Source: Escherichia phage EC_OE_11. Taken from it: DNA of 64,000 nucleotides. The stretch's first letter is position 1, and every line of letters begins with the position of its first letter. The position numbers and the translations under genes were made by a program. Positions 24,067 to 52,899 of the stretch are shown here, in pieces. Below the pieces are notes generated by a model. That model ran no database searches. It was not told where the DNA came from and saw nothing but the letters and a program-made list of their open reading frames with translations. The stretch lies in the sequence record OQ108497.1, one strand, 5' to 3'.

Positions 24067-24576
24067 TTAGCGATAGAATTGATGTTCTTTGTAGCGGTAC
24101 ACTAGAACCATATCTTTTTCCCAGTGTGCTTTTATTGTAGATTTTTTAAAGTATAATGCGCCTTTTGTAATATCTAATGCAATTCGTAATTCTGGAAAAT
24201 GGTTATCGAGATAAAGTAGACGTTCTGCTATAGCCTTAGCTTCCTTCCACTTATCGTGTTCCATAACATTGAATGTCTTCGTGTAAGAGAATTGTCCTTT
24301 TTGAAACAAAACTTCTTTTATAGTATCAGGGAAATATGAATCTCTCGCCCTATTCAATACTACATTACCAACAGCAGACATACCGCGCTTTCCTTGATTA
24401 CGACTTTCTGCATAGATTGCACAAGCTAATAGATTTTCTTTACTATCACGCTTTGTACACTTGTGAACTACTTTAGCAGTTTTTACGTTTGCAGCTTCGG
24501 CTTGCGCCACAACAGGTGTAAATGTAAAAGCAGTTAAGGATAGTAACGCAATTGCGACAAAGGTTTTTATTGACAA
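24067..24576 (-). CDS. SleB/CwlJ-like cell wall hydrolase with signal peptide
   Basis: 169 aa; N-terminal signal peptide (AIALLSLTAFTFTPVVAQA); LACAIYAESRNQGKRGMSAVGNVVLNRA resembles the Hydrolase_2 (SleB) core. Confidence 0.5.
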   Translation of the reverse strand: MSIKTFVAIALLSLTAFTFTPVVAQAEAANVKTAKVVHKCTKRDSKENLLACAIYAESRNQGKRGMSAVGNVVLNRARDSYFPDTIKEVLFQKGQFSYTKTFNVMEHDKWKEAKAIAERLLYLDNHFPELRIALDITKGALYFKKSTIKAHWEKDMVLVYRYKEHQFYR

Positions 24577-25310: not shown

Positions 25311-25326
25311 GCGCCCCGAAGGGCGC
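25311..25326. terminator. GC hairpin downstream of TerD-like gene
   Basis: GCGCCC-CGAA-GGGCGC stem-loop. Confidence 0.35.
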
Positions 25327-25335
25327 TATGATTTA

Positions 25336-25932
25336 TTACTCGAACCAATCGTCGCCAGCGCCAAACGCTTTAACTACATCGTAAATGTCAAGCCCAGCTT
25401 TACCTACACCATATGCTTTCAGTTTCCATTCGCTATCTTCTCGCACCAGGGAGGCAACGTGGCAAATGGTGTTACCTGCAAGTTCTGGAGCCAAGAAGTC
25501 AAAGTCCAGCAGTTCAACATTACGTTCATCATCGAAGATTTTAAGGAAACCTTCGGTAGCGTGACCAAGGCGTTTCTTACCCGTTTCGTCATCAATAGTA
25601 ATTACGAATGCAATTTCCTGTGCTTCAGCAGAGATATTATCCAGTGTAACATCAATCTGCTCCATTTGTCCTACACCGTCACGAACATCTTCACCTGCAA
25701 AAGTAGAACGTTCAGGATCAAATTTCTGCGCGTAGCATACCAGGTGGCGAGGAGACAACAGTTCCGGCAGACCAGATGCGTTGTGTCGGCAAATCAGAGC
25801 ACTAACATCCAGATCCAGTTTTTCGTTAGATTTCCAAGAGAATTCCAGACGAATGCGTTTCAGTGCTGGTGCGATCTTTTTCAGAGAAACTTTTTCGCTA
25901 GAACCTTTTTTCAGGGAAATTTTCTGAGTCAT
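25336..25932 (-). CDS. TerD-domain protein (tellurium resistance TerD family)
   Basis: 198 aa, typical TerD size; N-terminal KISLKKG ... VSLKK; acidic Ca-binding-like segment FAGEDVRDGVGQMEQIDV; next to vWA, TelA-like and TerC-like genes. Confidence 0.6.
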   Translation of the reverse strand: MTQKISLKKGSSEKVSLKKIAPALKRIRLEFSWKSNEKLDLDVSALICRHNASGLPELLSPRHLVCYAQKFDPERSTFAGEDVRDGVGQMEQIDVTLDNISAEAQEIAFVITIDDETGKKRLGHATEGFLKIFDDERNVELLDFDFLAPELAGNTICHVASLVREDSEWKLKAYGVGKAGLDIYDVVKAFGAGDDWFE

Positions 25933-26004
25933 AATTTATTATCTCCTTTGTTGTTAATTTACGTTGTCTATTTTACTAATCTTTTCTACAAAGTCAAGCG
26001 TTTT

Positions 26005-26799
26005 TTACGCTTTTGCTCCAAATTTTTTAACCCACTCGCCAAACTCTTCGGATAACAGTTTATCGTAAAGTTCTTCATCAGACAAGGACAAATCTGCAAT
26101 ACCGATAAAATCAACATTATCGTACTCTTTTGCCAAGTCTTTCAGGAATTTAAAGTTTGCATTACCTACACCAACCATAAACCAGTAAACAGGTGTATTG
26201 CGGTGTTTGTTCAGCAAGCTACGTACTGCTGAAGTATCCATGTTCTCCCCGTCAGTTTGGAAGAAAATCATTGCAGGAGTACGATCAACTTGTGCATTAG
26301 TATCTACAACCTGTTCTACAACAGTACGTGTAACTTGTACAAGTTCTTTTTTACCAGTTAGTTTAGCAAGGAAACCTTTAGCCGGAACTTCTTCATACTC
26401 AACGACTTCGCGTGTAATATTTTTCATAGGTACACTGCCGAAGTATGTATCATAAATCTCTTGCATTACTGGAGCATAAGCTGTACCACCGTTGATGCAA
26501 ACATTAGACATGCAAGAGCCGACATAATCATCATACACATCAGCCGTTGCAGGAGGCAGTTCAAAAGAAGAACTATTGAAAGCCCACATGTCAATCTGTG
26601 CATTATCATCAAACTTCATACCAAACGGCAGCAGTTTACCTACAAAATCACTAACAGTGCCATCACGATACAGTTCACACATACTGCCCGAAATATCTAA
26701 GGCGCTACCGACACGAAGAACAACATCGTTAATCTTTTTCTTACGCAGAGATACAGTAAGAGTTTCTTGACGTTTTTTAAGACTGATTTTATTGGACAT
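26005..26799 (-). CDS. von Willebrand factor A (vWA) domain protein, TerY-like
   Basis: 264 aa; MIDAS motif LDISGSM; vWA-size domain; adjacent to TerD-like gene. Confidence 0.6.
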   Translation of the reverse strand: MSNKISLKKRQETLTVSLRKKKINDVVLRVGSALDISGSMCELYRDGTVSDFVGKLLPFGMKFDDNAQIDMWAFNSSSFELPPATADVYDDYVGSCMSNVCINGGTAYAPVMQEIYDTYFGSVPMKNITREVVEYEEVPAKGFLAKLTGKKELVQVTRTVVEQVVDTNAQVDRTPAMIFFQTDGENMDTSAVRSLLNKHRNTPVYWFMVGVGNANFKFLKDLAKEYDNVDFIGIADLSLSDEELYDKLLSEEFGEWVKKFGAKA

Positions 26800-26800
26800 A

Positions 26801-27070
26801 TTATTTCTCCTTTCTGAGTGTAATGTTAGTAACTTCTAAATCCACTTCTACTACTTCTGTATCATATAAAATACAGTTAAGTTGACCTCTTTGTGAACCA
26901 TTCAGACACATTGCTTGGTTTGTATTAACCTTAATAAACACTAAGTTTCTGAACGTATCTAAACCAGCATCTTGATAGGCAACATAATATACGAATGTAT
27001 CACCTGCGTCAAGTTCTCCAAAAGATTTAGGTTCATCTGATTTGTCGTCTTTGATATTAAATTTAAGCAC
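26801..27070 (-). CDS. hypothetical protein
   Basis: 89 aa ORF, 1 nt after vWA gene start. Confidence 0.3.
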   Translation of the reverse strand: MLKFNIKDDKSDEPKSFGELDAGDTFVYYVAYQDAGLDTFRNLVFIKVNTNQAMCLNGSQRGQLNCILYDTEVVEVDLEVTNITLRKEK

Positions 27071-27626
27071 TGTCTTCTCCTTTACCTGCTCTCAAGCCTA
27101 AATAGAAAGCCTCTCTGGTGATCTTTTGCAACTCGTTTAAAGAGATAGTTACAACTAAATCATCTTCAATTTCTAGCCTTGAGTCTTCTTCTGTCTCAAT
27201 GCAAGTATTATGCACTTTGTGGTAAGGATTGTCAACACGTTTAAATTTATTATTTTCAGTGCTGAAGAAGCAATCTGGATCTTCTTCTCCATCACCCCAG
27301 CCCTGGTTAGGGTCTTCTTCAGATCTTTCTGTTGGGATCTCACCTGTAAAGTGCTCTTCTAATACCAGAGCAATACCATCCCCAAGATCGGAAGAGAACA
27401 TCAAATTACAAACTTCTTCCCAAGGCATAGACCACTTGAATCTTTTACGATTGCCATGTTTATCTTCTTCGTTAGAGAAAACACCACCATAGCTATCATA
27501 ATTGCCATACATCTCTTCAACAACTTTACCACCTTTCAAAAGAAATAGGTAGCAAGGAGAGCCATCGAAAGAGGTAGAAAGAGCAGCATTACCAGACTCT
27601 TTGCACAAGAAACTAAAGCACCCCAT
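27063..27626 (-). CDS. hypothetical acidic protein
   Basis: 187 aa ORF. Confidence 0.3.
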   Translation of the reverse strand: MGCFSFLCKESGNAALSTSFDGSPCYLFLLKGGKVVEEMYGNYDSYGGVFSNEEDKHGNRKRFKWSMPWEEVCNLMFSSDLGDGIALVLEEHFTGEIPTERSEEDPNQGWGDGEEDPDCFFSTENNKFKRVDNPYHKVHNTCIETEEDSRLEIEDDLVVTISLNELQKITREAFYLGLRAGKGEDSA

Positions 27627-27826
27627 TATACACCAGCCTTAAGATCAATTAAAGCCAAAGTTGTTTCAGAATGTGTTTGCTCGTCTACAGGTGCAGTCAT
27701 ATGATAATACAAAAAGTCTTCGGCATCATACCAATCTGACTCTTGACCTTGTTTCCAACCATCAATGAAAGCATCTTCCATGATGGTTTGTAACTCTTCA
27801 CGAGTTAAGTGAATATCTTTACTCAT
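27626..27826 (-). CDS. hypothetical protein
   Basis: 66 aa ORF, translationally coupled. Confidence 0.25.
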   Translation of the reverse strand: MSKDIHLTREELQTIMEDAFIDGWKQGQESDWYDAEDFLYYHMTAPVDEQTHSETTLALIDLKAGV

Positions 27827-28059
27827 TACACATTCTCCTCTTTTACCAATTCCATCGTTGAACTATCAAAACCATCTTTAGAAGAATAGGTATAGACAGG
27901 ACGTAGTTCTCGCAGGACAGTGAATACATTAGGATCATCTAACCAAGCATCCTGGAGGAGAACATAACGATCTTCATTGTCGTACTGGACAGCAATCATA
28001 GAACCAGACAGTTTGTAAATTTTAATATTCATAATATATTTCTCCTTAAAGTAGACCAC
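27826..28059 (-). CDS. hypothetical protein
   Basis: 77 aa ORF, translationally coupled. Confidence 0.25.
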   Translation of the reverse strand: MVYFKEKYIMNIKIYKLSGSMIAVQYDNEDRYVLLQDAWLDDPNVFTVLRELRPVYTYSSKDGFDSSTMELVKEENV

Positions 28060-29149
28060 GTTTAACAGTTTGAATCATACCATCTTCAAGAGATTGTACT
28101 TCTTGGATGTAATCAATACGAGCAGCACGGGCTTCAGTGTTGATTCGGTTAGTTTCTTCCAACATTTTAACTAAGTTTTCTTGATCGCGACGTAGTGTTT
28201 CAATATCCAATACTTGACGATTAGCAAGTTGTGTAGCTTCAATTTGGTTTTGTGCAGCCAGATCACTACCCATTGCAATAGCAGCATTAAATTCATTCAG
28301 TACATTGTTCTGTGTATCGGCTGCTTTCTTCTGGCGTAGACTTTCAATATACATAGAAAAGTTTGCAGAGTAAGCAGGGATAACATTATTCACAATGTTA
28401 CGTGCTGATCGCATCAAACTTGCAGATACTTTCTGCATACTTTGTACACGTGGCCCCATCTGAACACACAGTAAACGCAAGGCTTTCAGGTCTGCAATAC
28501 GAATTTCAAGCAGATCCATAGTATCACGAGTACGTTGACGCTCTTCTACTTCATTTTCAGGTAGAGTATTAAGGCGAACTTCTTCTTTTTCATAAGTAGC
28601 TGTTAGAAGCTCTATATCCCTGTTTAAGCTAAGAGCATATTTTGCAATAGCCTCTTCTAAACGTTGCAGATATCGTAAAGAATCTTCTTCTTTTTTCAAG
28701 TCTGTTTGGAGTGTCTTTACCAAACCTTCAATACGATTATTGATGGTGTCAAACTCTCCAAACAAATCTTCTTTCATACCTAACACTTTCTTAACTAGCT
28801 TACCTAAACCTTTAGATTGTTTAATAGAATTAGGATCAAGTTGCTTTGCTTGCTTAATAAGTGCAGTTAAACGTTCACTCATTTCATCTCCCTGGGATGA
28901 ACGCTGGTGTTTAAGCACTTCAGCATTAAGGTTACGAAGAGTAAGTCCTGCATCAGCACCAACTTGTTCAATCTCTTCACGAGACATTGGAGGCAGCATT
29001 TGTACAGGTCGTGCAACAGCAGGTGCATATACAGGGCTTGCATCCATAGCACTTGGAGCAAACAAAGACTTACTCTTTTCTGTTGTTGCCGTGAATACAC
29101 TCATTTCAGACGGTTTGCTTTTTACGGCACTGATAAAAGGACTGGACAT
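28046..29149 (-). CDS. TelA-like (toxic anion resistance/KlaB-like) protein
   Basis: 367 aa, mostly helical/coiled-coil, size and composition like the TelA family; within TerD/TerC neighbourhood. Assigned by context and composition, not alignment. Confidence 0.4.
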   Translation of the reverse strand: MSSPFISAVKSKPSEMSVFTATTEKSKSLFAPSAMDASPVYAPAVARPVQMLPPMSREEIEQVGADAGLTLRNLNAEVLKHQRSSQGDEMSERLTALIKQAKQLDPNSIKQSKGLGKLVKKVLGMKEDLFGEFDTINNRIEGLVKTLQTDLKKEEDSLRYLQRLEEAIAKYALSLNRDIELLTATYEKEEVRLNTLPENEVEERQRTRDTMDLLEIRIADLKALRLLCVQMGPRVQSMQKVSASLMRSARNIVNNVIPAYSANFSMYIESLRQKKAADTQNNVLNEFNAAIAMGSDLAAQNQIEATQLANRQVLDIETLRRDQENLVKMLEETNRINTEARAARIDYIQEVQSLEDGMIQTVKRGLL

Positions 29150-29217
29150 TCAATTTCCTCCATATTCTTTAGTAGATGGTGATACCTCTGTACCACCATC
29201 ATAACACAAATTAAGTA

Positions 29218-30069
29218 TTAAACAAACATATCTAAATAATTTGTAGTAATAAATGCTCCATCTGCTTCCAGATTAACATAACCAGTAGCATTAGTGGTTA
29301 AGAAATCCAGATCGAAGGACTCTTTAACACCCCGTACCTCAACACGAGAGATATCGAATACAGGTAGTGTAACAGCCTCTTCGTGCAATACCGTACCTTT
29401 GTAGGTTGCCTTAATGATAAACTTGATATTACCCGTTCCAGCATCATACAAAACACTTTCAAACCCTTTGAGAGTATATTTATCACCAGAAGTGAAGTGC
29501 AAAGTTGCTTTGTTTACAGTACGTTTTTTACGAGGAGTTCCTTTCACACGTTTATGATCACTACGTTTTTTGTATTTAGGAATGAATACAAACGATACAC
29601 TCTCAAGAAAGGTATCAACATCAAGGATTTTAATATCCTCTGTTGCAGCAAATTTTGAAGTCGTTGCATCAAAATGCTTTCCCCTGCGATCATACATAAA
29701 GATATCAAACCGATCTTCTAAATCAAACAAATTATGTATCTTAATTTCAGAATGCTTGCACATTGCAGCAACCTTAAACTCTTCAAAACGTGGGTGTTCT
29801 ACCAGTTCTTCAAGTTTTACACCAAAGACAGTATATGGTTTCGAAGTTTTTTCTGGTGTTGGCATTACAGAAGCATAATCACCGATTGCGCTCTTAAAGC
29901 AAAATTGTTCTTGACCTGTATTTTTACCAACGAATTTACAGTATTCGTCATCGTGCATGCTTTCCTTGGTAGTACCAACAAACTCAAAACCATCTTTATT
30001 CTTCTCAAGAATTTCTTGATTAAAGATCCAACCTTCCAGGCGATACACTTTACCAACTTCTAGTTTCAT
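29218..30069 (-). CDS. hypothetical protein
   Basis: 283 aa ORF between TelA-like and lipoprotein genes. Confidence 0.3.
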   Translation of the reverse strand: MKLEVGKVYRLEGWIFNQEILEKNKDGFEFVGTTKESMHDDEYCKFVGKNTGQEQFCFKSAIGDYASVMPTPEKTSKPYTVFGVKLEELVEHPRFEEFKVAAMCKHSEIKIHNLFDLEDRFDIFMYDRRGKHFDATTSKFAATEDIKILDVDTFLESVSFVFIPKYKKRSDHKRVKGTPRKKRTVNKATLHFTSGDKYTLKGFESVLYDAGTGNIKFIIKATYKGTVLHEEAVTLPVFDISRVEVRGVKESFDLDFLTTNATGYVNLEADGAFITTNYLDMFV

Positions 30070-30104
30070 CTGTTTCTCCTTCTTGTTTAATCTGTATTAA
30101 ATTA

Positions 30105-30695
30105 TTAACGACGACGTGAGCTACTAAAACTACGTTTCGACGAAGAATAACTTTTCGAAGACTTACTATAAGAGCTAATAGGACTTGAGTAAGACTTACG
30201 AGCAGAGTAATCACTATTCACTTTTGTTGTTGATGGGCGTGAATACGTTTGTACACTTTGCTGCTTAATTGTGTTTTGTTTAGTGGTTGTATATGTATTT
30301 ACAGGTTTATCATAAAAACTACGCTTTTGTGTTGTATATGATTTACTGTTAGTTGTAGGAGCAGCATTGTTATTAATAATGGTTGTATTGCTACCACCAT
30401 CTCTATAACCACCACCGCCACTATTACCACTCAACATATGACCAAGAAGCATACCTGTAGCAAATTCACCTACACCAGAAGAACTACTACCGCCTCCTTG
30501 CACAACAACTGTTGAAGGTTGTGCAGGTGCTGCTTGAACAACTTGAGGTGCAGGTTGATTTACATATTGTTCATCTACCATCTGATTTGGTGTTTGTTGG
30601 TAACGTTGATTTTGTACATTTTCAGAATCATCACAACCTACCAGCAATACACTACCTAATACAACTGCAACAATAAAAGATTTAATGTTTTTCAT
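30105..30695 (-). CDS. lipoprotein with Ser/Gln/Tyr-rich low-complexity region
   Basis: Start set at ATG 30695 behind GAGAGGG RBS; signal peptide plus lipobox (SVLLVGC); long Q/S/Y/T-rich tail. Confidence 0.45.
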   Translation of the reverse strand: MKNIKSFIVAVVLGSVLLVGCDDSENVQNQRYQQTPNQMVDEQYVNQPAPQVVQAAPAQPSTVVVQGGGSSSSGVGEFATGMLLGHMLSGNSGGGGYRDGGSNTTIINNNAAPTTNSKSYTTQKRSFYDKPVNTYTTTKQNTIKQQSVQTYSRPSTTKVNSDYSARKSYSSPISSYSKSSKSYSSSKRSFSSSRRR

Positions 30696-30888
30696 TTGTA
30701 ACCCTCTCATTTAAAGTCTCAACACAATTTTTAAAATCCCTAGAGAAACAATACATCTGTTCTCCGTTCCTGTTGATAGTAATTGTATGATTATCAATGT
30801 ATGTTGTCAAGATAAAAATCAAACAAAATAACCCTAAAGCAAAACAAATATTTTCAAACAGAATCCAAAGAACACGTAAAACCACCAT
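30682..30888 (-). CDS. small membrane protein
   Basis: 68 aa with hydrophobic FALGLFCLIFILTTYI segment. Confidence 0.3.
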   Translation of the reverse strand: MVVLRVLWILFENICFALGLFCLIFILTTYIDNHTITINRNGEQMYCFSRDFKNCVETLNERVTNEKH

Positions 30889-30904
30889 CAGATCACCTCA
30901 ACAA

Positions 30905-30922
30905 AGCCCCCGAAGGGGCTTA
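30905..30922 (-). terminator. GC hairpin downstream of TerC-like gene
   Basis: AGCCCC-CGAA-GGGGCT stem-loop. Confidence 0.4.
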
Positions 30923-30927
30923 ATGAA

Positions 30928-31905
30928 TTAAGCAACAGCCTGGTCTTCTTTTTCAGGGAAGATTAAACTTGCAATGACACCCAGCCCCAGAGTACCTAAC
31001 ACAATATACATACTGATCGTCGGATCAATGTGTGCTGGCAGGAAACTCACTTTTGCGTGCAGAGTTTCTGCAAACGGGTGATACATCAGTTTTACACCCA
31101 CAAATACCAGGACTACGATAACTGCTTTCTCCAGATGAACCAAATATTTCAGTGCAACACTAAGGACAAAGAACAGAGCACGTAGACCTAAAATTGCACA
31201 CAGCATTGAAGAAAATACAAGCAGAGGTTCTTGTGTCACTGCAATTACTGCTGGAACAGAGTCTACTGCAAAGATTACGTCAACCATTTCCATTACAAAC
31301 ACACAAACCAGAGCCGGAGTTGCTACACGAACACCATTTTTGATTGTGAAGAACTTCTCACCATCCATCTGATCAGATACAGGGAACAGCTTACGAACAA
31401 TGCGAGTAGCCCAGTGTTTAGAGTAATCAACTTCTGCGTCATTATCTCCAGCGAATACCATTTTAGCTGCACAGAAAAGGATGACCGCACCGAAGAAGAT
31501 ATTAACATACCAGCCCAAACTCAACAAATAAGTGCCTACTGCTACAAACACACCTCGGAAGACAATCGCACCTGCAATACCCCAAAGTAGAATCTTGTGT
31601 TGCAAGTGTGTGCTTTTAATACCAAAACTTGCGAATACTGCCACAAATACTACTAAGTTATCTACAGAAAGAGATTTCTCCAACACATATCCACTCAAGA
31701 ACAAGCTCGCAAAATCAGCACCGTGCTGGAAGTATACAAAACCATAGTAGGCTAATGATACCCCAATCCAGAAAATTGACCAACCAATTGCAGATTTAAA
31801 TGAAATTTCTTTGTTTTCTCTGTGTCCAAAGAAATCAATACAAATCGACAACACTAAAATACCCACTAAAACAACCACATCAATAATTGGGAAACCCAGT
31901 TGCAT
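30928..31905 (-). CDS. TerC-family integral membrane protein
   Basis: 325 aa, multiple TM helices; duplicated TerC signature (LEKSLSVDNLVVF and EMVDVIFAVDSVPAVIAVT). Confidence 0.7.
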   Translation of the reverse strand: MQLGFPIIDVVVLVGILVLSICIDFFGHRENKEISFKSAIGWSIFWIGVSLAYYGFVYFQHGADFASLFLSGYVLEKSLSVDNLVVFVAVFASFGIKSTHLQHKILLWGIAGAIVFRGVFVAVGTYLLSLGWYVNIFFGAVILFCAAKMVFAGDNDAEVDYSKHWATRIVRKLFPVSDQMDGEKFFTIKNGVRVATPALVCVFVMEMVDVIFAVDSVPAVIAVTQEPLLVFSSMLCAILGLRALFFVLSVALKYLVHLEKAVIVVLVFVGVKLMYHPFAETLHAKVSFLPAHIDPTISMYIVLGTLGLGVIASLIFPEKEDQAVA

Positions 31906-31982
31906 TCTTATCTCCTCTTTAATGCGGAGGACAATCCTCCGCTCTATGTCTTATACTATAAACTGTTTTTAAAGAAAGTCAA

Positions 31983-32231
31983 CTAGTTCAGTTCTGTAAT
32001 TTTAAGTTTATCTTCTTTGTTAATGATAGGGAAAGCTACAGCATCACCTACGTCATCAATAAAGCAAATAGCAAGACCACCTTCCACTTTACTAATCTGA
32101 CCCTTAAAGGCGCGATACGGGGCAGGAACTTTATCTCCATCTTCAAGGATAATAGCCTCGTAAACCTTGCCGATAGTACAATCACGAGTGTTTCTAAATT
32201 TTTCAAGCACTTCAACATTTACTTTACGCAT
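31983..32231 (-). CDS. hypothetical protein
   Basis: 82 aa ORF. Confidence 0.3.
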   Translation of the reverse strand: MRKVNVEVLEKFRNTRDCTIGKVYEAIILEDGDKVPAPYRAFKGQISKVEGGLAICFIDDVGDAVAFPIINKEDKLKITELN

Positions 32232-32246
32232 ATAAAAAATCCTCTC

Positions 32247-32453
32247 TTATTTGTTAGATTGAAAGATACCACGAAGTACCGCAAGAATGAACGTCACACA
32301 GACTACACTCCAAAACGTTACAGGAACATGATGCCAGTCTAAACCGATAATGTCAATCATATAGTTGTATGCTAAAAGCAGCAGCCAACTAGGGATTAAC
32401 ACAATCAAAAACACAACAATAAAACAACCTAATACTGCTAAAACACCTGCCAT
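32247..32453 (-). CDS. small membrane protein
   Basis: 68 aa, two hydrophobic helices. Confidence 0.3.
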   Translation of the reverse strand: MAGVLAVLGCFIVVFLIVLIPSWLLLLAYNYMIDIIGLDWHHVPVTFWSVVCVTFILAVLRGIFQSNK

Positions 32454-32462
32454 ACTTTCTCC

Positions 32463-33179
32463 TTATTTCAGTTTGTAAACAATTACATTTAAACCTTTGT
32501 TTACTAGAGTTTCTTCGATCATAAGTTTTACAATATTCCAAGAACCTCCAGCCAAACCACAACCAAGCATTGGTAAACCTACAATTTTACCGCCTGAAGA
32601 TACAACATCGTCTCCCATACTATCTAGCGCATTGTAGATAGCTTCATAATTCAGATCACGCTTACCTTCCTCACGACTACTATAACCATATTGTCCATAT
32701 AAATTATAAATTGTCAAATTGTTTTCTGTATATTTGGTAAACGTACCTAATTTTTTATAATCACCACGTTTAGTGGCACAATCTGCTTTAAACGCACCAG
32801 GCCACTTGCTTTTAATTTTTGGTGCAATACCACTACCCATAGTGCAAAAACAGTTACAGCAGTGTGCTATAGCGTCTATATCGCCTCTCTCGGCTGCTGC
32901 TAAAAGATCACCGTATACCTCAACGATACCTGCTGGATAACTTGTTACAATTTCATCTTCCCAGTACATTTTCTCTACACCACCGATCAGTGCAAAGTTT
33001 TGTGTAATGCGATCATCAATATAGTTAAGACCTGAAACATACACAGCGTATTCATCCTGTGCTGTAATACCTTGCACACGAATTCTTAAGACACCATCTT
33101 TATCTGTTGCTACACGCCCAAAATCTTTTTCTGTAATATTGGTGATAGGATCTCCGAAAGTCATTACTTTATTAGACAT
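32463..33179 (-). CDS. macro-domain-like protein (ADP-ribose binding/processing)
   Basis: Start set at ATG 33179 (MSNKVM), 2 nt after PRTase stop; motif GDLLAAAERGDIDAIAHCCNCFCTMGSGIA resembles the macro-domain N-terminal core (DAIVNAAN ... GGGV). Confidence 0.45.
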   Translation of the reverse strand: MSNKVMTFGDPITNITEKDFGRVATDKDGVLRIRVQGITAQDEYAVYVSGLNYIDDRITQNFALIGGVEKMYWEDEIVTSYPAGIVEVYGDLLAAAERGDIDAIAHCCNCFCTMGSGIAPKIKSKWPGAFKADCATKRGDYKKLGTFTKYTENNLTIYNLYGQYGYSSREEGKRDLNYEAIYNALDSMGDDVVSSGGKIVGLPMLGCGLAGGSWNIVKLMIEETLVNKGLNVIVYKLK

Positions 33180-34029
33180 AATAATCCCCTTTAACATTAG
33201 ATTTGTTGATAATGTTGCTTTCAAAAAATTGACGTAGGAAATCAAAGTTCTCTTTGTATTTTTCAATGTTATTGTAGCCTTCTGCAAGGCAACCAAAGAA
33301 CAGTTGTTCTACATAATACAAAGGAAGCTGTGAAAGTGCAATTTTAAAATCAACTTCGCTTTGACTCATTAGATACTTAATAGGACGAACCAAACATTTA
33401 GCATCAGTTTCTTGCTTAATCATTTTAATAAAAGCTGCCAGGTTATTGATATAGTTGAAGTTAAGTGCAGCTTCGGTGTTGGCTTCTGTACCTTCATACT
33501 TTGCAAAGTACAGGAAAAACGTATCGTTTTCAACACCTTCTTTGTCTAAAATTTCAATAAGTTTTTCTTCGTGTGTTCCTGTAATATTAACATCATCAAT
33601 GAAAATCAGAGTTTTATTACCCCAGAAATCACGATTGATAGAGAAAGTGTCACCATCGATCAAAGCCTTACGATCTTCTTTGCTAAGAAATCCATAATCA
33701 TTGATATAGCTCACTTTACGATGAACGATATCCCACTCCACTGGTTTACCACCTTTGATAGAGATTAGGTAGTTGAGGTGATCTACAAAATGTTCAGATA
33801 ACACTGTAGCTGCATTTTTCACATAGTTATATGGAGATGGAATAACAACAAAACTTTCATTTACCAGTCGTTCTTCATACTTAGAAAAGAAACTTTCAGC
33901 CAGAATGCGCCCCATTCTTTTTGCTGCCTGGTTACTACCAAACTTTAGTTTGGAATAATCTGCAATGTTAAATTTTGCTTCCTTCAGGTTAGTAAAAGTA
34001 TTAGCAAAATGTTGAATTTGATTACGCAT
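33172..34029 (-). CDS. type I phosphoribosyltransferase-like protein
   Basis: 285 aa; PRPP-binding-like motif LIFIDDVNITGTHEE (hydrophobic run, DD, then T-G-T). Confidence 0.5.
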   Translation of the reverse strand: MRNQIQHFANTFTNLKEAKFNIADYSKLKFGSNQAAKRMGRILAESFFSKYEERLVNESFVVIPSPYNYVKNAATVLSEHFVDHLNYLISIKGGKPVEWDIVHRKVSYINDYGFLSKEDRKALIDGDTFSINRDFWGNKTLIFIDDVNITGTHEEKLIEILDKEGVENDTFFLYFAKYEGTEANTEAALNFNYINNLAAFIKMIKQETDAKCLVRPIKYLMSQSEVDFKIALSQLPLYYVEQLFFGCLAEGYNNIEKYKENFDFLRQFFESNIINKSNVKGDYYV

Positions 34030-34696
34030 TAATAAGTTCCTCTTTTTTAAGTTTAGCCAACAAGTTTTCTGGATTAATAATATGACAGAACTTCATCCCT
34101 ATGTCAACAGCTTTTCCATCATAGATCAAACTATCTCCAACGTGTAAGATCTCCTCTGGTGCGAGATCAAACGTTACCATTTCATCAAAAGAGAGTTTAA
34201 AAAACCTAGGATCTGGTTTACACAAGCAAAACTCATCAGAAAAATGCATAAAGTCGAATGGTAATTTTGTCAAGCCAGAATATACAGCTAAGAAACTACC
34301 AGGTACAAAATTGGTATTGCTCTTAATACTCAAAGAATAGGTTGAACTTAGCTCTTCCAACTTCTTGCAAAGTTCAGGGTTTAATGTTGGAGGATGTTTT
34401 ATAAACATTGCTAAACAGTCTCTTTTTAACCCATCCACCTTATCAAGATCAATGTTCAAATGAGCAGAAAGTGTTTCCCAAGCATTTCTAGATGTTCCAC
34501 AAATGCCTTTTTCTGCTTTTAAATCCAAGAGAGTTTTTACCTCTTTATATACGGTAGCTGCTTCTACCTCAGAACAAGAGGCATACTCGGCAATAACCTT
34601 GTTGCGTTCTTCTGCATACAAAGGATTAGCAGTAATAAGAGTATTCCATACATCAAAAGAAATATGCTTAACAGTCATTTTTAATCCTCCGTCCAA
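34022..34696 (-). CDS. HAD-superfamily hydrolase-like protein
   Basis: 224 aa in ORF track (true start probably the internal ATG at MTVKH); motif ISFDVWNTL resembles HAD motif I (DxDxT); C-terminal HVGDSLIYDGK resembles motif IV. Confidence 0.45.
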   Translation of the reverse strand: MDGGLKMTVKHISFDVWNTLITANPLYAEERNKVIAEYASCSEVEAATVYKEVKTLLDLKAEKGICGTSRNAWETLSAHLNIDLDKVDGLKRDCLAMFIKHPPTLNPELCKKLEELSSTYSLSIKSNTNFVPGSFLAVYSGLTKLPFDFMHFSDEFCLCKPDPRFFKLSFDEMVTFDLAPEEILHVGDSLIYDGKAVDIGMKFCHIINPENLLAKLKKEELINA

Positions 34697-35085: not shown

Positions 35086-36246
35086 TTAGTAAGAACGACC
35101 ACCAAACACATACTCTGTGTAGTTTTTACGTTCTTTGTTTTTAATAACAACTTCAATGTTGTTACCTTTATCATCGGTGAACATAAAGTGATAACCGTCA
35201 CCACCCATTGTACGGATGTGTTTTTCATCATACGTTAGCAAGATACGGTCTACACCCCAGTAGTAGTCACCTTCTTCATCTTTATCTTCTACGGTAACGA
35301 TCCCTTCCATTTCAGGAAGATGCTCTTCACCTAGTTTATGGTCTACAGCTACAACATAACGATTACCACTAAACAAACCTTGTGCTGTCATACCGTCAAT
35401 ATCGGTATCTGCCGAAACATCTCCTGTACGATCTACACCGTTAACTTTCAGAAGTTTAACCTCTTTTGCAGCATAGCGGTGTTCAGTAATACTGATACCC
35501 ATTAGTGCAAGTGCATCAGAGAATTTGTCATTAGGGTAACGGTTAAGTTCTTCTACTAATGACTGAACAATATCAAAGTTCAAATCCACGGAGAGATTAT
35601 AAAGCGTTTCAAAGTCTGGTAAGAAGGCTTTGTTCTCCAGATTTTTAGCCAGATAATCATCCATAGTAGCTTTAGGTAGTTTCTTATAGCTAAAACTGTA
35701 GAAAATACGGCTAGGACGATTACGCAAAAATTCTGATACATAACCATCATTTTTAGTCAATACAAACAGTTTGTCGTAGCCACCAACACCATCCAGCAGG
35801 GTAAGCAAACCATCTTGTGCATCTTTTTCAGCATACAGTTTATCAAATTCATCGATCATAATCATTACAGGTTGTGTGATTTTAGACATAAAATTGATAA
35901 AGCCTTCACCATTAAAAGCACTGCCGATAGAAATAGTAGGAATACCCATTTCACGAAGAGCAGAAGACAGCATTTTAGCTTGCAAAGTTTTACCGCTACC
36001 TTTCGTACCTTCAAGGAGAACACCTGTGTTTTTACCTTTGCGGCTAAGGAACGTTTTGATAATACGTTCTGATTTATCATCAGTATCACCGTATGTTACT
36101 GAAGGGACTTCCATATCGTTTTTAGGATACAGGAAGAACTCACCACTTTGAGTAACACCTACACCAAAAGTTCCTGCTGGAATTTCTTCAATATCTGTAC
36201 CAGATTTCTGACGCAGGAAGATTTGATTGCCGAATACTGTAAACAT
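35086..36246 (-). CDS. AAA-type ATPase (paralog 1)
   Basis: 386 aa; Walker A GTKGSGKT; Walker B-like IMIDEFDK; paralogous to 49973..51100 along most of the length. Confidence 0.5.
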   Translation of the reverse strand: MFTVFGNQIFLRQKSGTDIEEIPAGTFGVGVTQSGEFFLYPKNDMEVPSVTYGDTDDKSERIIKTFLSRKGKNTGVLLEGTKGSGKTLQAKMLSSALREMGIPTISIGSAFNGEGFINFMSKITQPVMIMIDEFDKLYAEKDAQDGLLTLLDGVGGYDKLFVLTKNDGYVSEFLRNRPSRIFYSFSYKKLPKATMDDYLAKNLENKAFLPDFETLYNLSVDLNFDIVQSLVEELNRYPNDKFSDALALMGISITEHRYAAKEVKLLKVNGVDRTGDVSADTDIDGMTAQGLFSGNRYVVAVDHKLGEEHLPEMEGIVTVEDKDEEGDYYWGVDRILLTYDEKHIRTMGGDGYHFMFTDDKGNNIEVVIKNKERKNYTEYVFGGRSY

Positions 36247-51174: not shown

Positions 51175-52347
51175 ATGGTAGCACTAAAATCATGGGAACA
51201 ATATAAAGAAGAATTAATACCCCTTGCTAAAAATCACAATATTCAAATCTTGGGTTATGTTGGTGAATGGAAAGGGAACAAGACTAAACTTAAGCTATCT
51301 TGCCCTAAACATGGAGAGTGGAACACCACGAACATTAATGATTTTAAGAAGGGACGTGGTTGTCCTATCTGTTCTGGTAAGAAGCCGTTAACATGGGAAA
51401 CAGAATTGCCGATCTTGGAAGAGATAGCACAGAAGAGGGGGTATCAGGTGTTAGGGTACGTGGGAGAATGGAAAGGGAATAAAACAAAACTTGATTTGTT
51501 GTGTCATTGTGGTAATAAATGGGATACTACAAGTATTAACAATTTTAAACGTGGTAGCGGTTGTCCACAATGTAAGAGGGAGAGACAAACAATGTCCGAC
51601 GATCAACATATTGCAGATTTCTTTTCTACAGGGGAATTTAAGGAAGGCACTATCTTCACCAATACAGGGAAACGTAACAAGCGTGATGCAGTATGGATGG
51701 TTGAGTGTCCTGTTTGCTCCCATGATGAATATGTTCAAGCAGGTGTTTGTGATGGTAAATTTTACTCTGCAGGACATAACCTTAAACAAGGGTATATTCC
51801 GTGTCGTTGTGGGAACTATCAGTATACAGAAGACCAGATCACCTATAGGGTAAAAAAGGAAGTAGAAGGGAAAGGGTATGTCTGGGTAGATTGGATTACC
51901 AAACCCTCTTCTATAGGTAAGTTTAAATATCTTTGTCTTGTGCATGGTGAGCAGATAGGGAGTGCTCGTAATTTATTAAGCCTCGGTCAAGGTTGTCCAC
52001 AGTGTGCTGGTCATAATCAACAGCAATTATATATTAATATTGTTAAAGATAATGATATTATAGTTGCTCTTAAGTTTGGCATAGCTAAAGATAGTGACAG
52101 GCGATTAAACAATCAAAATAGGCGTAATATGTTTTTTATGGAGCGTATTTGTTTATATGATTTTAGTACAGTGAAACAGTGTAAGGCTGCTGAAAGAGCT
52201 ATAAAGAAAAAACTAAAAACTGGTATTTTAACAGCAAGAGAGTTGAAAGATGGTTATACAGAAACAGTAAGTGTTTCTGATTTGGAAAATCTTCAAAAAA
52301 TTATTACACAATATGGTGGCAAGTTAGTATACAGTAAGGAGGTGTAA
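51175..52347 (+). CDS. zinc-ribbon repeat protein with C-terminal T5orf172/GIY-YIG-like domain
   Basis: 390 aa; two near-identical modules (GYVGEWKGNKTKLxLxC ... GxGCPxC) plus more CxxC pairs; C-terminal LKFGIAKDSDRRL resembles the T5orf172 family. Confidence 0.35.
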   Translation: MVALKSWEQYKEELIPLAKNHNIQILGYVGEWKGNKTKLKLSCPKHGEWNTTNINDFKKGRGCPICSGKKPLTWETELPILEEIAQKRGYQVLGYVGEWKGNKTKLDLLCHCGNKWDTTSINNFKRGSGCPQCKRERQTMSDDQHIADFFSTGEFKEGTIFTNTGKRNKRDAVWMVECPVCSHDEYVQAGVCDGKFYSAGHNLKQGYIPCRCGNYQYTEDQITYRVKKEVEGKGYVWVDWITKPSSIGKFKYLCLVHGEQIGSARNLLSLGQGCPQCAGHNQQQLYINIVKDNDIIVALKFGIAKDSDRRLNNQNRRNMFFMERICLYDFSTVKQCKAAERAIKKKLKTGILTARELKDGYTETVSVSDLENLQKIITQYGGKLVYSKEV

Positions 52348-52899
52348 ATGCGGATTACTGATAAGTATGTGTTCTTCTTCTCGGCAAAAGATGAATTTAG
52401 CAACTGGTATCTATCATCTTTTATTGAACCTTTAGCTCCCAAGTATAATAATTCTATTACAAGTTCTGTTGAATTTACTTGTGTGGAACAATATATGATG
52501 TGGAGAAAAGCATGTTTGTTTTATGATTACAACATTGCATCTTCTATTTTAACCGGAGATCTAAGATATACAGGAGAAAAAGAACAGGCATATTATAAGC
52601 GACTAGGTAGATTAGTTAAAGATTACGATGAAGCTACTTGGACTTCTTTACGGGAGAAGATTGTCAAGCGTGGTTTGTATCTTAAATACACACAAAATGA
52701 AGATCTCAAAAATAAACTTATAGCTTACGCAGATAAGGAGTTTGTAGAGGCAAGTCCTTATGATTCTATTTATGGTATCAAAATGGGGATGTGGGATCGG
52801 GACGTGGAAAATAAGGATTGTTGGAAAGGACAAAATCTTTTAGGAAAATGGCATACAGACCTTGCTGTTTATCTAAAATCACAATCTGATATTTCCTGA
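52348..52899 (+). CDS. NADAR-domain protein (YbiA-like, DUF1768)
   Basis: 183 aa; motifs FFFSAKDEFSNWY, EQYMMWRKA, LGR and YDSIYGI match conserved NADAR blocks (compare E. coli YbiA FYS ... FSNF, EHYFQAQKF). Confidence 0.65.
   Translation: MRITDKYVFFFSAKDEFSNWYLSSFIEPLAPKYNNSITSSVEFTCVEQYMMWRKACLFYDYNIASSILTGDLRYTGEKEQAYYKRLGRLVKDYDEATWTSLREKIVKRGLYLKYTQNEDLKNKLIAYADKEFVEASPYDSIYGIKMGMWDRDVENKDCWKGQNLLGKWHTDLAVYLKSQSDIS

Follow-up and report, generated by a model that had tools for sequence, protein, structure and literature searches.

Few bacterial genes for stress and phage resistance are as widespread as the Ter genes and yet without a mechanism. In bacteria they form a 'hub' with phosphoribosyltransferase (PRTase) and HAD genes (Anantharaman, Iyer & Aravind 2012), and the R478/plasmid ter loci are credited with phage inhibition and colicin resistance in papers on phage ter genes. 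Phages carry such genes as well. An "alx-like ter cluster" has been noted for phi92 in the literature, ter genes have been reported for phages PhiPsa374 and PhiKp34, and Iyer et al. 2021 (PMC7824862) described phage Ter systems, one of them with PRTase and HAD genes, and proposed a role against superinfecting phages. In this study, we analyzed a block of this kind at positions 25336-34696 of a 64,000-nucleotide stretch of Escherichia phage EC_OE_11 (sequence record OQ108497.1; hereafter the window), in which an original prediction had seen a Ter-like stress-response module.

The block is a run of minus-strand open reading frames (ORFs), and the seven to which the original prediction had given domain names are all present on that strand, at the following positions.

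34022-34678, minus strand: HAD-superfamily hydrolase, first gene of the HAD-PRTase_3 cassette; Pfam Hydrolase (PF00702) 5.1e-6, 27.5 bits against a cut-off of 26.4
33172-34029, minus strand: PRTase_3, a ComF-like type I phosphoribosyltransferase; Pfam PF15610 1.5e-41
32463-33179, minus strand: macro-domain protein, domain at residues ~85-238; Pfam Macro 1.9e-7, 31.5 bits against a cut-off of 22
30928-31905, minus strand: TerC, Alx subfamily, nine hydrophobic segments; Pfam TerC (PF03741) 1.2e-38
28046-29149, minus strand: TelA-family protein, all-helical with very long predicted helices; Pfam PF05816 5.1e-34 (residues 57-362), PHROG 5890 'tellurite resistance'
26005-26799, minus strand: vWA protein of the TerF C-terminal type; Pfam vWA-TerF-like (PF10138) 7e-39
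25336-25932, minus strand: single-domain TerD; Pfam PF02342 5.1e-28, 98 bits against a cut-off of 25.3

In the Pfam profile searches each of these domain calls lies above the curated cut-off, and the E-values of the seven ORFs rule out chance matches; searches of PHROGs, NCBIfam and PDB sequences concur with the assignments.

Along its whole length the block shares 98.6% identity with that of Escherichia phage KKE7M; its identity to that of BASEL phage JohannJBalmer is 98.5%, and phages Bas60-62 (BASEL) are near-identical to the source phage, which belongs to the genus Justusliebigvirus, subfamily Stephanstirmvirinae, the phi92-like phages. At least 80% of the block is covered in 54 phage records. 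Four records named 'Campylobacter phage' (MG065639, MG065645, MG065656 and MG065689) match it at 97.8% identity over the full length, and their host label is doubtful. Several GenBank records already label its genes as tellurite resistance/ter, TerC, vWA, phosphoribosyltransferase, macrodomain and HAD. The phage Ter block is therefore real but already known, and annotations of it in these phages go back to 2012. The view that such a block is unusual for a virulent phage had to be given up, as the deposited phage records with PRTase_3 number 156, those with TerD 147 and those with TerC 176, besides the phi92 cluster and the phage Ter systems described in 2021. What this study adds is a fixed enzyme cassette, an Alx-type TerC without a riboswitch, a HAD protein without the Asp+2 residue, a degenerate TerD loop and a macro gene that probably lies outside the module.

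The cassette emerged from a survey of 24 fetched phage loci, representing about 18 distinct sequence types, and two bacterial loci. The HAD gene lies directly upstream of the PRTase_3 gene in every phage locus (24/24) and in both bacterial ones. Outside the subfamily, Ter genes lie within 10 kilobases (kb) of the cassette in eight lineages (L007, L008, L013, L017, L019, L021, L022 and L026), or 8 of 14 sequence types, and the gene order differs in each, for example TerC-x-x-TerD-x-vWA-x-x-HAD-PRT, TelA-HAD-PRT-vWA-..-TerD, or TerD-TerD-DUF475-HAD-PRT. When the cassette neighbors were clustered all against all, the only frequently recurrent families were vWA, TerD, TelA and TerC/DUF475; macro, lipoprotein and RNA ligase genes stood beside the cassette in 4-5 loci each. 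Phages with PRTase_3 infect Escherichia, Klebsiella, Xanthomonas, Rhizobium, Brevundimonas and Caulobacter, and hundreds of metagenomic proteins belong to the same family. HAD-PRTase_3 is thus a fixed two-gene cassette that is found repeatedly among Ter genes in unrelated phages. The likeness to bacterial Ter neighborhoods that had been noted for this block is borne out on a Hymenobacter plasmid, where HAD and PRTase_3 lie beside three TerD genes, two vWA genes, and PP2C, kinase and DUF475 genes; on Rhizobium plasmids the pair stands alone. A tblastn search with the PRTase gave plasmid matches only from Rhizobium and Hymenobacter and none of the IncHI2 type. A recent capture of the block from an E. 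coli host was considered and rejected in view of these plasmid matches, the 37% identity of TerC to E. coli Alx and the distant match of TerD to its Klebsiella counterpart (8.6e-15).

The genes of the module are also well maintained. Within the genus, the ratio of non-synonymous to synonymous substitution rates (dN/dS), calculated from four close genomes that are not independent of one another, is 0.01 for TerD, 0.02 for both TerC and TelA, 0.05 for both vWA and PRTase_3, and 0.07 for HAD, as against 0.16 for the macro gene and 0.2-0.6 for several small filler ORFs. The comparison with related phages that the original prediction called for showed that the order nrdD-nrdG ... HAD-PRTase-macro-x-TerC ... 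TelA ... vWA ... TerD-cell-wall hydrolase-glycosyltransferases is kept from Justusliebigvirus to Phapecoctavirus ESCO13 and related metagenomic contigs, with the core genes syntenic at 65-81% protein identity. The six core genes are under strong purifying selection and their family motifs are intact. This bears directly on the proposal that the block was captured as a bacterial operon, has been decaying since and no longer has a function. The set is indeed reduced compared with bacterial loci, the Ca2+ loop of TerD is degenerate, and unrelated small ORFs are interspersed; however, the dN/dS values of 0.01-0.07 for all six core genes, the intact ORFs in the 54 near-full-length records, the cross-genus synteny and the retained catalytic and ligand motifs speak against decay, and the selection data already refute this proposal, to which we assign next to no probability.

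Among the membrane-associated components, TerC is the most informative. It scores 322.8 bits against TIGR03718 (Alx), for which the cut-off is 246.4, and the duplicated signature recognized in the original prediction is present as LEKSLSVDN (residues 75-83) and EMVDVIFAVDS (residues 206-216). Residues E76, D82, E206, D209 and D215 align with E86, D92, E213, D216 and D222 of E. coli Alx, which mutagenesis has shown to be needed for Mn2+ export (PMC10197570). Members of the TerC family are exporters of Mn2+ and provide exported enzymes with metal (PMC10197570, PMC10550928). The phage TerC is of the Alx type and is predicted from these residues to be an exporter of divalent metal (Mn2+). The TerC proteins of phages Mt1B1_P17, tuntematon and phiWec188 are 94-95% identical to the one described here, their PRTase proteins only about 65%, and the TerD of Mt1B1_P17 about 81%; this mosaic pattern suggests a recent exchange of terC between genera.

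The terC gene is preceded by a conserved leader.

31906-31982, minus strand: terC intergenic leader of 77 nucleotides, with a sigma-70-like promoter (TTGACT-16-TATAGT), then a 19-nucleotide hairpin (31924-31942), then a Shine-Dalgarno sequence

In five divergent lineages the -35 element TTGAC of this leader is invariant and the hairpin stem covaries through compensatory substitutions. Since the promoter and terminator scan gave counts equal to chance overall, only sites in intergenic gaps and the conserved terC leader were used. An Rfam scan of the whole window returned no family at gathering score, and hence no yybP-ykoY Mn2+ riboswitch upstream of terC. The hairpin sits where bacterial alx has its Mn2+ riboswitch, and an mRNA stabilizer, a processing site or a terminator are candidate roles for it.

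The vWA protein corresponds to the C-terminal part of TerF and comes without TerF's N-terminal TerD domain. The metal ion-dependent adhesion site (MIDAS) named in the original prediction is intact in the alignment, in which the DxSxS...T...D residues (here D-I-S-G-S ... GGT ... TDG) are kept in 15/15 sequences; the proteins of this subfamily carry an insertion of ~40 amino acids. TerD matches Klebsiella TerD (PDB 2KXT) at 8.6e-15, with entries 2KXT/2KXV among its matches, and retains the first Ca2+-site motif, LDLDVSA. The G+C content of terD is 45%, compared with 29-41% in the other block genes, which may reflect a foreign origin or expression-related codon use. Structure prediction with fold comparison, as proposed at the outset, succeeded for one of the two proteins to which it was applied. 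For PRTase_3 it gave a confident type I fold, described below, whereas the AlphaFold2 model of TelA, built on a 23-sequence alignment, is of low confidence (predicted local distance difference test score, pLDDT, 56), and its Foldseek matches, none of them below E 0.01, were long-helix bundles of a generic kind (BAR domains, AhlC/ClyA). The PDB sequence search returned no relative of TelA and nothing usable for vWA or PRTase_3, and a literature search on a link between TelA and PspA gave nothing relevant.

Of the two cassette enzymes, PRTase_3 is the better defined. Its gene overlaps the HAD stop codon by 8 nucleotides. The loop for phosphoribosyl pyrophosphate (PRPP), LIFIDDVNITGT, is intact, as in type I PRTases, and is invariant in 81 homologues; the residues DDV-ITG-HE-K are likewise invariant. 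A search gave 306 homologues, all of them PF15610. The AlphaFold2 model (pLDDT 91.3) has a type I PRTase core with an extra C-terminal helical domain, and the best Foldseek matches are HGXPRT (1.2e-6; 6-oxopurine PRTases), ComF and PyrR, with E-values from 1e-6 to 1e-4. The modeled fold is that of a type I PRTase; it settles the fold, not the substrate. The HAD gene probably starts at ATG 34678, as in deposited annotations, with GGAGG 8 nucleotides upstream and a product of 218 amino acids, rather than at TTG 34696 as first read. The protein resembles PDB 2om6 (2.2e-8), with which it has the motif DVWNT in common, and its best NCBIfam matches, none of which reaches its cut-off, are HAD-IA subfamilies and haloacid dehalogenase type II (2e-8 to 4e-9). 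Motifs II (SNT), III (K) and IV (GDxxxD) are kept in a 25-sequence alignment of phage and bacterial members. A role of PRTase_3 as a defense-type PRTase toxin was considered and rejected, as the protein matches no PADLOC model; the HAD protein likewise matched none.

On this evidence we favor, with a probability of about 0.4, the reading that the block is a phage-borne reduced Ter module which conditions the membrane and the divalent metals of the infected cell and so protects it. Four proteins predicted to act at the inner membrane, namely the Alx-type TerC, the MIDAS-bearing vWA protein, the long helical TelA and the TerD β-sandwich, would be accompanied by the two enzymes of the cassette. 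Host-type promoters would drive expression of the genes along with those for replication and nucleotide metabolism. TerC would export Mn2+, or a related cation, from the cytoplasm or pass it to exported proteins, free of the host's Mn2+ and pH control, and vWA, TelA and TerD may assemble beneath the membrane. PRTase_3 would couple PRPP to a base-like acceptor, and the atypical HAD protein could convert the resulting compound to a small ligand with which the Ter proteins work. The net effect would be an infected cell whose envelope and metal state are conditioned, which is kept productive, and which is made refractory to envelope-directed insults such as superinfecting phages and colicins, mirroring the phenotypes of plasmid ter loci. 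Counter-defense, ion homeostasis and superinfection exclusion, the roles suggested in the original prediction, are candidate functions only. The macro enzyme would act separately, by removing ADP-ribose from DNA or protein after a DarT2-type attack.

Several observations weigh against this reading. We found no experiment on any phage Ter gene in the literature, and the papers on phage ter genes give their function as unknown. A scan of 27 ORFs between 22755 and 36737 found no TerB (PF05099), ATP-grasp, kinase or PP2C domain; with these parts of the bacterial systems absent, the bacterial phenotypes may not transfer to the phage block. The canonical acidic Ca2+ loop of TerD, GDNRTGEGDGDDE, is shortened and degenerate in this subfamily, where it reads GEDVRDG--VGQME with a deletion of two residues and GDD replaced by GQM, whereas other phage lineages and Hymenobacter keep the loop motif in the alignment. 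Klebsiella TerD binds Ca2+, and the canonical loop motif, GDN(R/L)TG(E/A)GDGDDE, is not found in the TerD of this block. With most of the acidic loop residues lost, a role of TerD as a simple metal sensor is weakened. A similar doubt attaches to the HAD protein. Asp+2 of motif I is the general acid/base of the HAD superfamily, and motif I in this protein is FDVWNT, so the nucleophilic Asp is present and the general acid absent; all 25 aligned sequences have [FL]D-x-[WY]-x-T, with Trp or Tyr at Asp+2, in place of the DxD of HAD phosphatases. A step from nucleotide to nucleoside is therefore not assured. For PRTase_3, the fold matches point to a type I PRTase only and indicate no acceptor. Six sequence types carry HAD-PRTase_3 without a Ter gene within 10 kb, among them Xanthomonas phage XaC1 and CcrColossus, which lack the adjacency but encode TerD elsewhere, and TerC occurs alone in many smaller phages (70-90 kb). 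The parts can thus work separately, and adjacency in phage accessory regions can reflect co-expression instead of shared function.

A different account of the same genes is that the block serves metal housekeeping only, tuning Mn2+ and other divalent cations for the phage ribonucleotide reductases and glycosyltransferases, with no part in phage or toxin conflict. The Alx-type TerC with all its export residues fits this proposal, as do the metal-binding nature of the vWA MIDAS and of TerD and the occurrence of solitary TerC. The location of the block fits it too: as the original prediction had placed it, the block lies between nucleotide-metabolism and replication genes, with nrdDG directly upstream of it and four glycosyltransferase genes, a primase/helicase and the DNA polymerase downstream. 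However, the export of Mn2+ would starve, not feed, Mn2+-dependent enzymes of the cytoplasm, the Ca2+ loop of TerD is degenerate, and the proposal leaves both TelA and the conserved link between HAD and PRTase_3 unexplained. We consider it unlikely. Host benefit is a further possibility, in which the block would be a 'moron' that makes the bacterium resistant to tellurite or xenobiotics. The database names do say tellurite resistance, and Iyer et al. 2021 (PMC7824862) mention possible xenobiotic resistance in pseudolysogeny. Yet these phages were deposited and used as lytic phages, so the host could benefit only for a short time; the block lacks TerB and the TerZ/A/E/F paralogues that the resistance operon has; and the authors who described a related phage judged tellurium resistance unlikely with an incomplete set. 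This proposal is very improbable, and where these phages are labeled 'tellurite resistance', the name should not be taken to signal a risk of resistance.

The protective module could also be given a more specific chemistry, in which HAD-PRTase_3 would make a dedicated ribosylated small molecule that switches a TerD/vWA/TelA/TerC assembly, altering the metal content and permeability of the envelope and fortifying the cell against competitors. Since the HAD protein lacks the acid/base residue of the phosphatases, its chemistry in such a scheme would not be plain nucleotide dephosphorylation. We regard this elaboration as fairly unlikely.

The macro gene, which the original prediction had joined to the PRTase/HAD operon on grounds of a shared ADP-ribose or phosphoribosyl chemistry, calls for a separate treatment. 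The physical linkage stands, as the gene overlaps the PRTase_3 gene by 8 nucleotides; the shared chemistry is not supported, as the macro gene adjoins the cassette only in this subfamily and its family, to which T-even Tk.4 belongs, is present in 2,972 phage records. It lies 7-8 kb away from the cassette in L003 and L013, and the remaining cassette loci do not have it. Between the two main genera it is 49% identical, compared with 65% for the PRTase and 81% for TerD. Its closest relatives point elsewhere: PDB 5E3B (SCO6735; 2e-15), human TARG1 (3e-10), DarG (NCBIfam 3e-13, PADLOC 5.7e-14) and T2 Tk.4, the gene between vs and tk (30% identity, E 9e-18). SCO6735 takes thymidine-linked ADP-ribose off DNA via Gln85, positioned by Asn27, and a 2025 preprint identifies T4 Tk.4 (AdfM) as an anti-DarTG2 factor needed to resist DarTG2. 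The equivalents of Gln85 and Asn27 are kept here (YGQYG and CCNCF align with IGQHG and VCNDL), Lys89 of SCO6735 is not conserved, and the Lys/Asp dyad of TARG1 is absent, as it is in SCO6735. An N-terminal extension of 85 amino acids is specific to the genus and absent from the Phapecoctavirus and T-even homologues. These similarities place the protein in the Tk.4/AdfM and SCO6735/DarG-like family, and it is likely an anti-DarT2 enzyme. From the adjacency confined to the subfamily, the low identity across genera and the wide distribution of the family, we read the gene as encoding a separate anti-ADP-ribosylation enzyme, merely co-transcribed with the cassette; it is probably an independent DNA/protein ADP-ribosyl glycohydrolase and not a conserved part of the cassette. 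In annotations it would be better labeled a Tk.4/AdfM-like ADP-ribosyl glycohydrolase. Elsewhere in the window, a NADAR-domain protein is encoded at 52348-52899 on the plus strand (Pfam 2.3e-36), directly downstream of a gene at 51175-52347 (plus strand) whose product of 390 amino acids contains a T5orf172 domain and four CapR-homology repeats (3e-43). The NADAR counterpart in Bas60-62 has been reported as an active anti-DarTG1 factor (AdfN^Bas60). Together, the macro and NADAR proteins would cover thymidine- and guanine-linked DNA ADP-ribosylation.

If the macro gene were nevertheless counted in, the three enzymes might be read as a counter-defense centered on ribose or nicotinamide adenine dinucleotide (NAD), in which HAD, PRTase_3 and the macro protein salvage or destroy a molecule derived from ADP-ribose or NAD and the Ter genes are mere neighbors. 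This would be a third route beside the known phage NAD+ reconstitution pathways. The three genes do overlap one another (8-nucleotide overlaps) and are adjacent in both main genera. In the Pseudomonas phages phiPsa397 and HJ01, moreover, the macro homologue comes after Prs-like and Nampt-like genes, which in phiPsa397 stand just upstream of telA, terC and terD, the position that HAD-PRTase_3 holds here. Against this stand the restricted adjacency of the macro gene and the contrast between the 2,972 phage records of its family and the 156 of PRTase_3, and across lineages the cassette co-varies with the Ter genes, not with the macro gene. PRTase_3 is a type I PRTase in which Pfam, PDB sequence and fold searches detected no similarity to the Nampt or Prs families, and neither it nor the HAD protein matches a PADLOC model. 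We consider this proposal quite improbable.

The remaining features of the block are small and mostly lineage-specific.

32247-32453, minus strand: 68-amino-acid protein with two hydrophobic segments, conserved in the subfamily only; 'holin' in one record
31983-32231, minus strand: 82-amino-acid protein, lineage-specific filler; dN/dS 0.43
30682-30888, minus strand: 68-amino-acid single-pass membrane protein with one hydrophobic segment, subfamily-specific; overlaps the start of the lipoprotein gene
30105-30695, minus strand: lipoprotein of 196 amino acids, lipobox LLVGC with Asp at +2; dN/dS 0.23
29218-30069, minus strand: 283-amino-acid protein, matched by PHROG 27504 only and conserved only partly between genera
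26801-28032, minus strand: four small ORFs between telA and the vWA gene (27826-28032, 27626-27826, 27063-27626 and 26801-27070)
25933-26004, minus strand: intergenic gap upstream of terD with a sigma-70-like promoter (TTGACT-16-TAAAAT), a consensus match only

The small membrane proteins and the lipoprotein (32247-32453, 30682-30888 and 30105-30695) are those that had been noticed among the Ter genes from the start, and with TerC they bring the number of predicted membrane- or periplasm-facing proteins encoded in the block to four. The lipoprotein, whose start is more likely ATG 30695 as in deposited annotations, is conserved in the subfamily and in L017, and its mature part is long and of low complexity, with an abundance of Q, P, S and T residues and a basic tail. 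In E. coli, an Asp directly after the lipobox Cys leads to retention in the inner membrane, and Asp at +2 predicts the same location for this protein. The 283-amino-acid protein has no match in Pfam, NCBIfam or PADLOC. The 187-residue product of 27063-27626 belongs to a large phage family without a Pfam model (293 matches, with a core of 130-145 amino acids at 50-65% identity). It was considered as a hidden Ter component and rejected, as the family is found elsewhere among replication genes in marine phage contigs and the ORF is deleted in the close relative L009. The genes fall into two tight or overlapping groups, one from HAD to the 82-amino-acid ORF and the other from telA to the vWA gene, with larger gaps before terC, telA and terD. 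The gap before terD shrinks to 15 nucleotides in Phapecoctavirus, and a hairpin (25311-25326) lies downstream of terD.

At the upstream end, an AAA ATPase gene (35086-36246) was not counted in the module because it is missing in Phapecoctavirus ESCO13 and related contigs and a hairpin separates it from the block. Just downstream of terD lies a minus-strand gene (24067-24576) for a cell-wall hydrolase of the SleB type (Pfam Hydrolase_2 4.5e-20), which begins with a hydrophobic segment resembling a signal sequence. As another gene is annotated as the endolysin in this genus, the protein may be an exported, non-lysis hydrolase. A similar hydrolase is found near the macro/NAD genes of Pseudomonas phage HJ01. 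On a larger scale, the GC skew of the window switches sign twice, near 12 kb and near 48 kb, in keeping with the layout in which plus-strand tail-fiber genes give way to the minus-strand replication/Ter block and this in turn to plus-strand small early-type ORFs.

A minimal, six-gene version of Ter that is under strong selection in a virulent and tractable E. coli phage offers a compact test system. It could be used to address how TerC, TerD, TelA and vWA act, what the PRTase and HAD enzymes produce, and whether phages use the module against rival phages or colicins.

In comparison with bacterial Ter systems, the phage block contains TerD, TerC, TelA and the TerF-type vWA together with the linked PRTase and HAD. 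In contrast to them, it lacks TerB, multiple TerD paralogues, ATP-grasp and the TerY kinase/phosphatase triad, its proteins are only distantly similar to the enterobacterial ones, and lineage-specific small membrane proteins are interspersed. It differs from enterobacterial terZABCDEF of the R478/O157 type in having one TerD-domain ORF and no TerB. With E. coli Alx, the phage TerC shares a score above the Alx cut-off, a similar length (325 against 321 amino acids) and the five acidic residues, whereas it is 37% identical, has no riboswitch and is embedded among Ter genes. The macro protein finds its best PDB, NCBIfam and PADLOC matches in the T4 Tk.4/AdfM and SCO6735 group and keeps the Gln/Asn pair, but has the N-terminal extension and lacks Lys89. 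NARP1, composed of the Prs-like Adps and the Nampt-like Namat, resembles the cassette as a ribose-phosphate transfer pair in an accessory region, with a macro gene as neighbor and, in the case of phiPsa397, Ter genes too. The families, however, are different: the cassette consists of PRTase_3, with its type I fold, and HAD, nothing points to NAD-related substrates, and no Nampt- or Prs-type match that would indicate NARP1 or NARP2 (Nampt + NMNAT) was found in the block. PhiPsa374-like phages differ in lacking HAD-PRTase_3 and in having Prs-like and Nampt-like genes nearby instead. Closest of all are the Ter operons described for phi92, Acinetobacter phage ME3, Caulobacter jumbo phages, PhiPsa374 and PhiKp34. 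The block has the same gene set and comes from the same genus as phi92, nothing categorical sets it apart from these operons, and what this subfamily adds is a macro gene directly after the PRTase and filler ORFs of its own.

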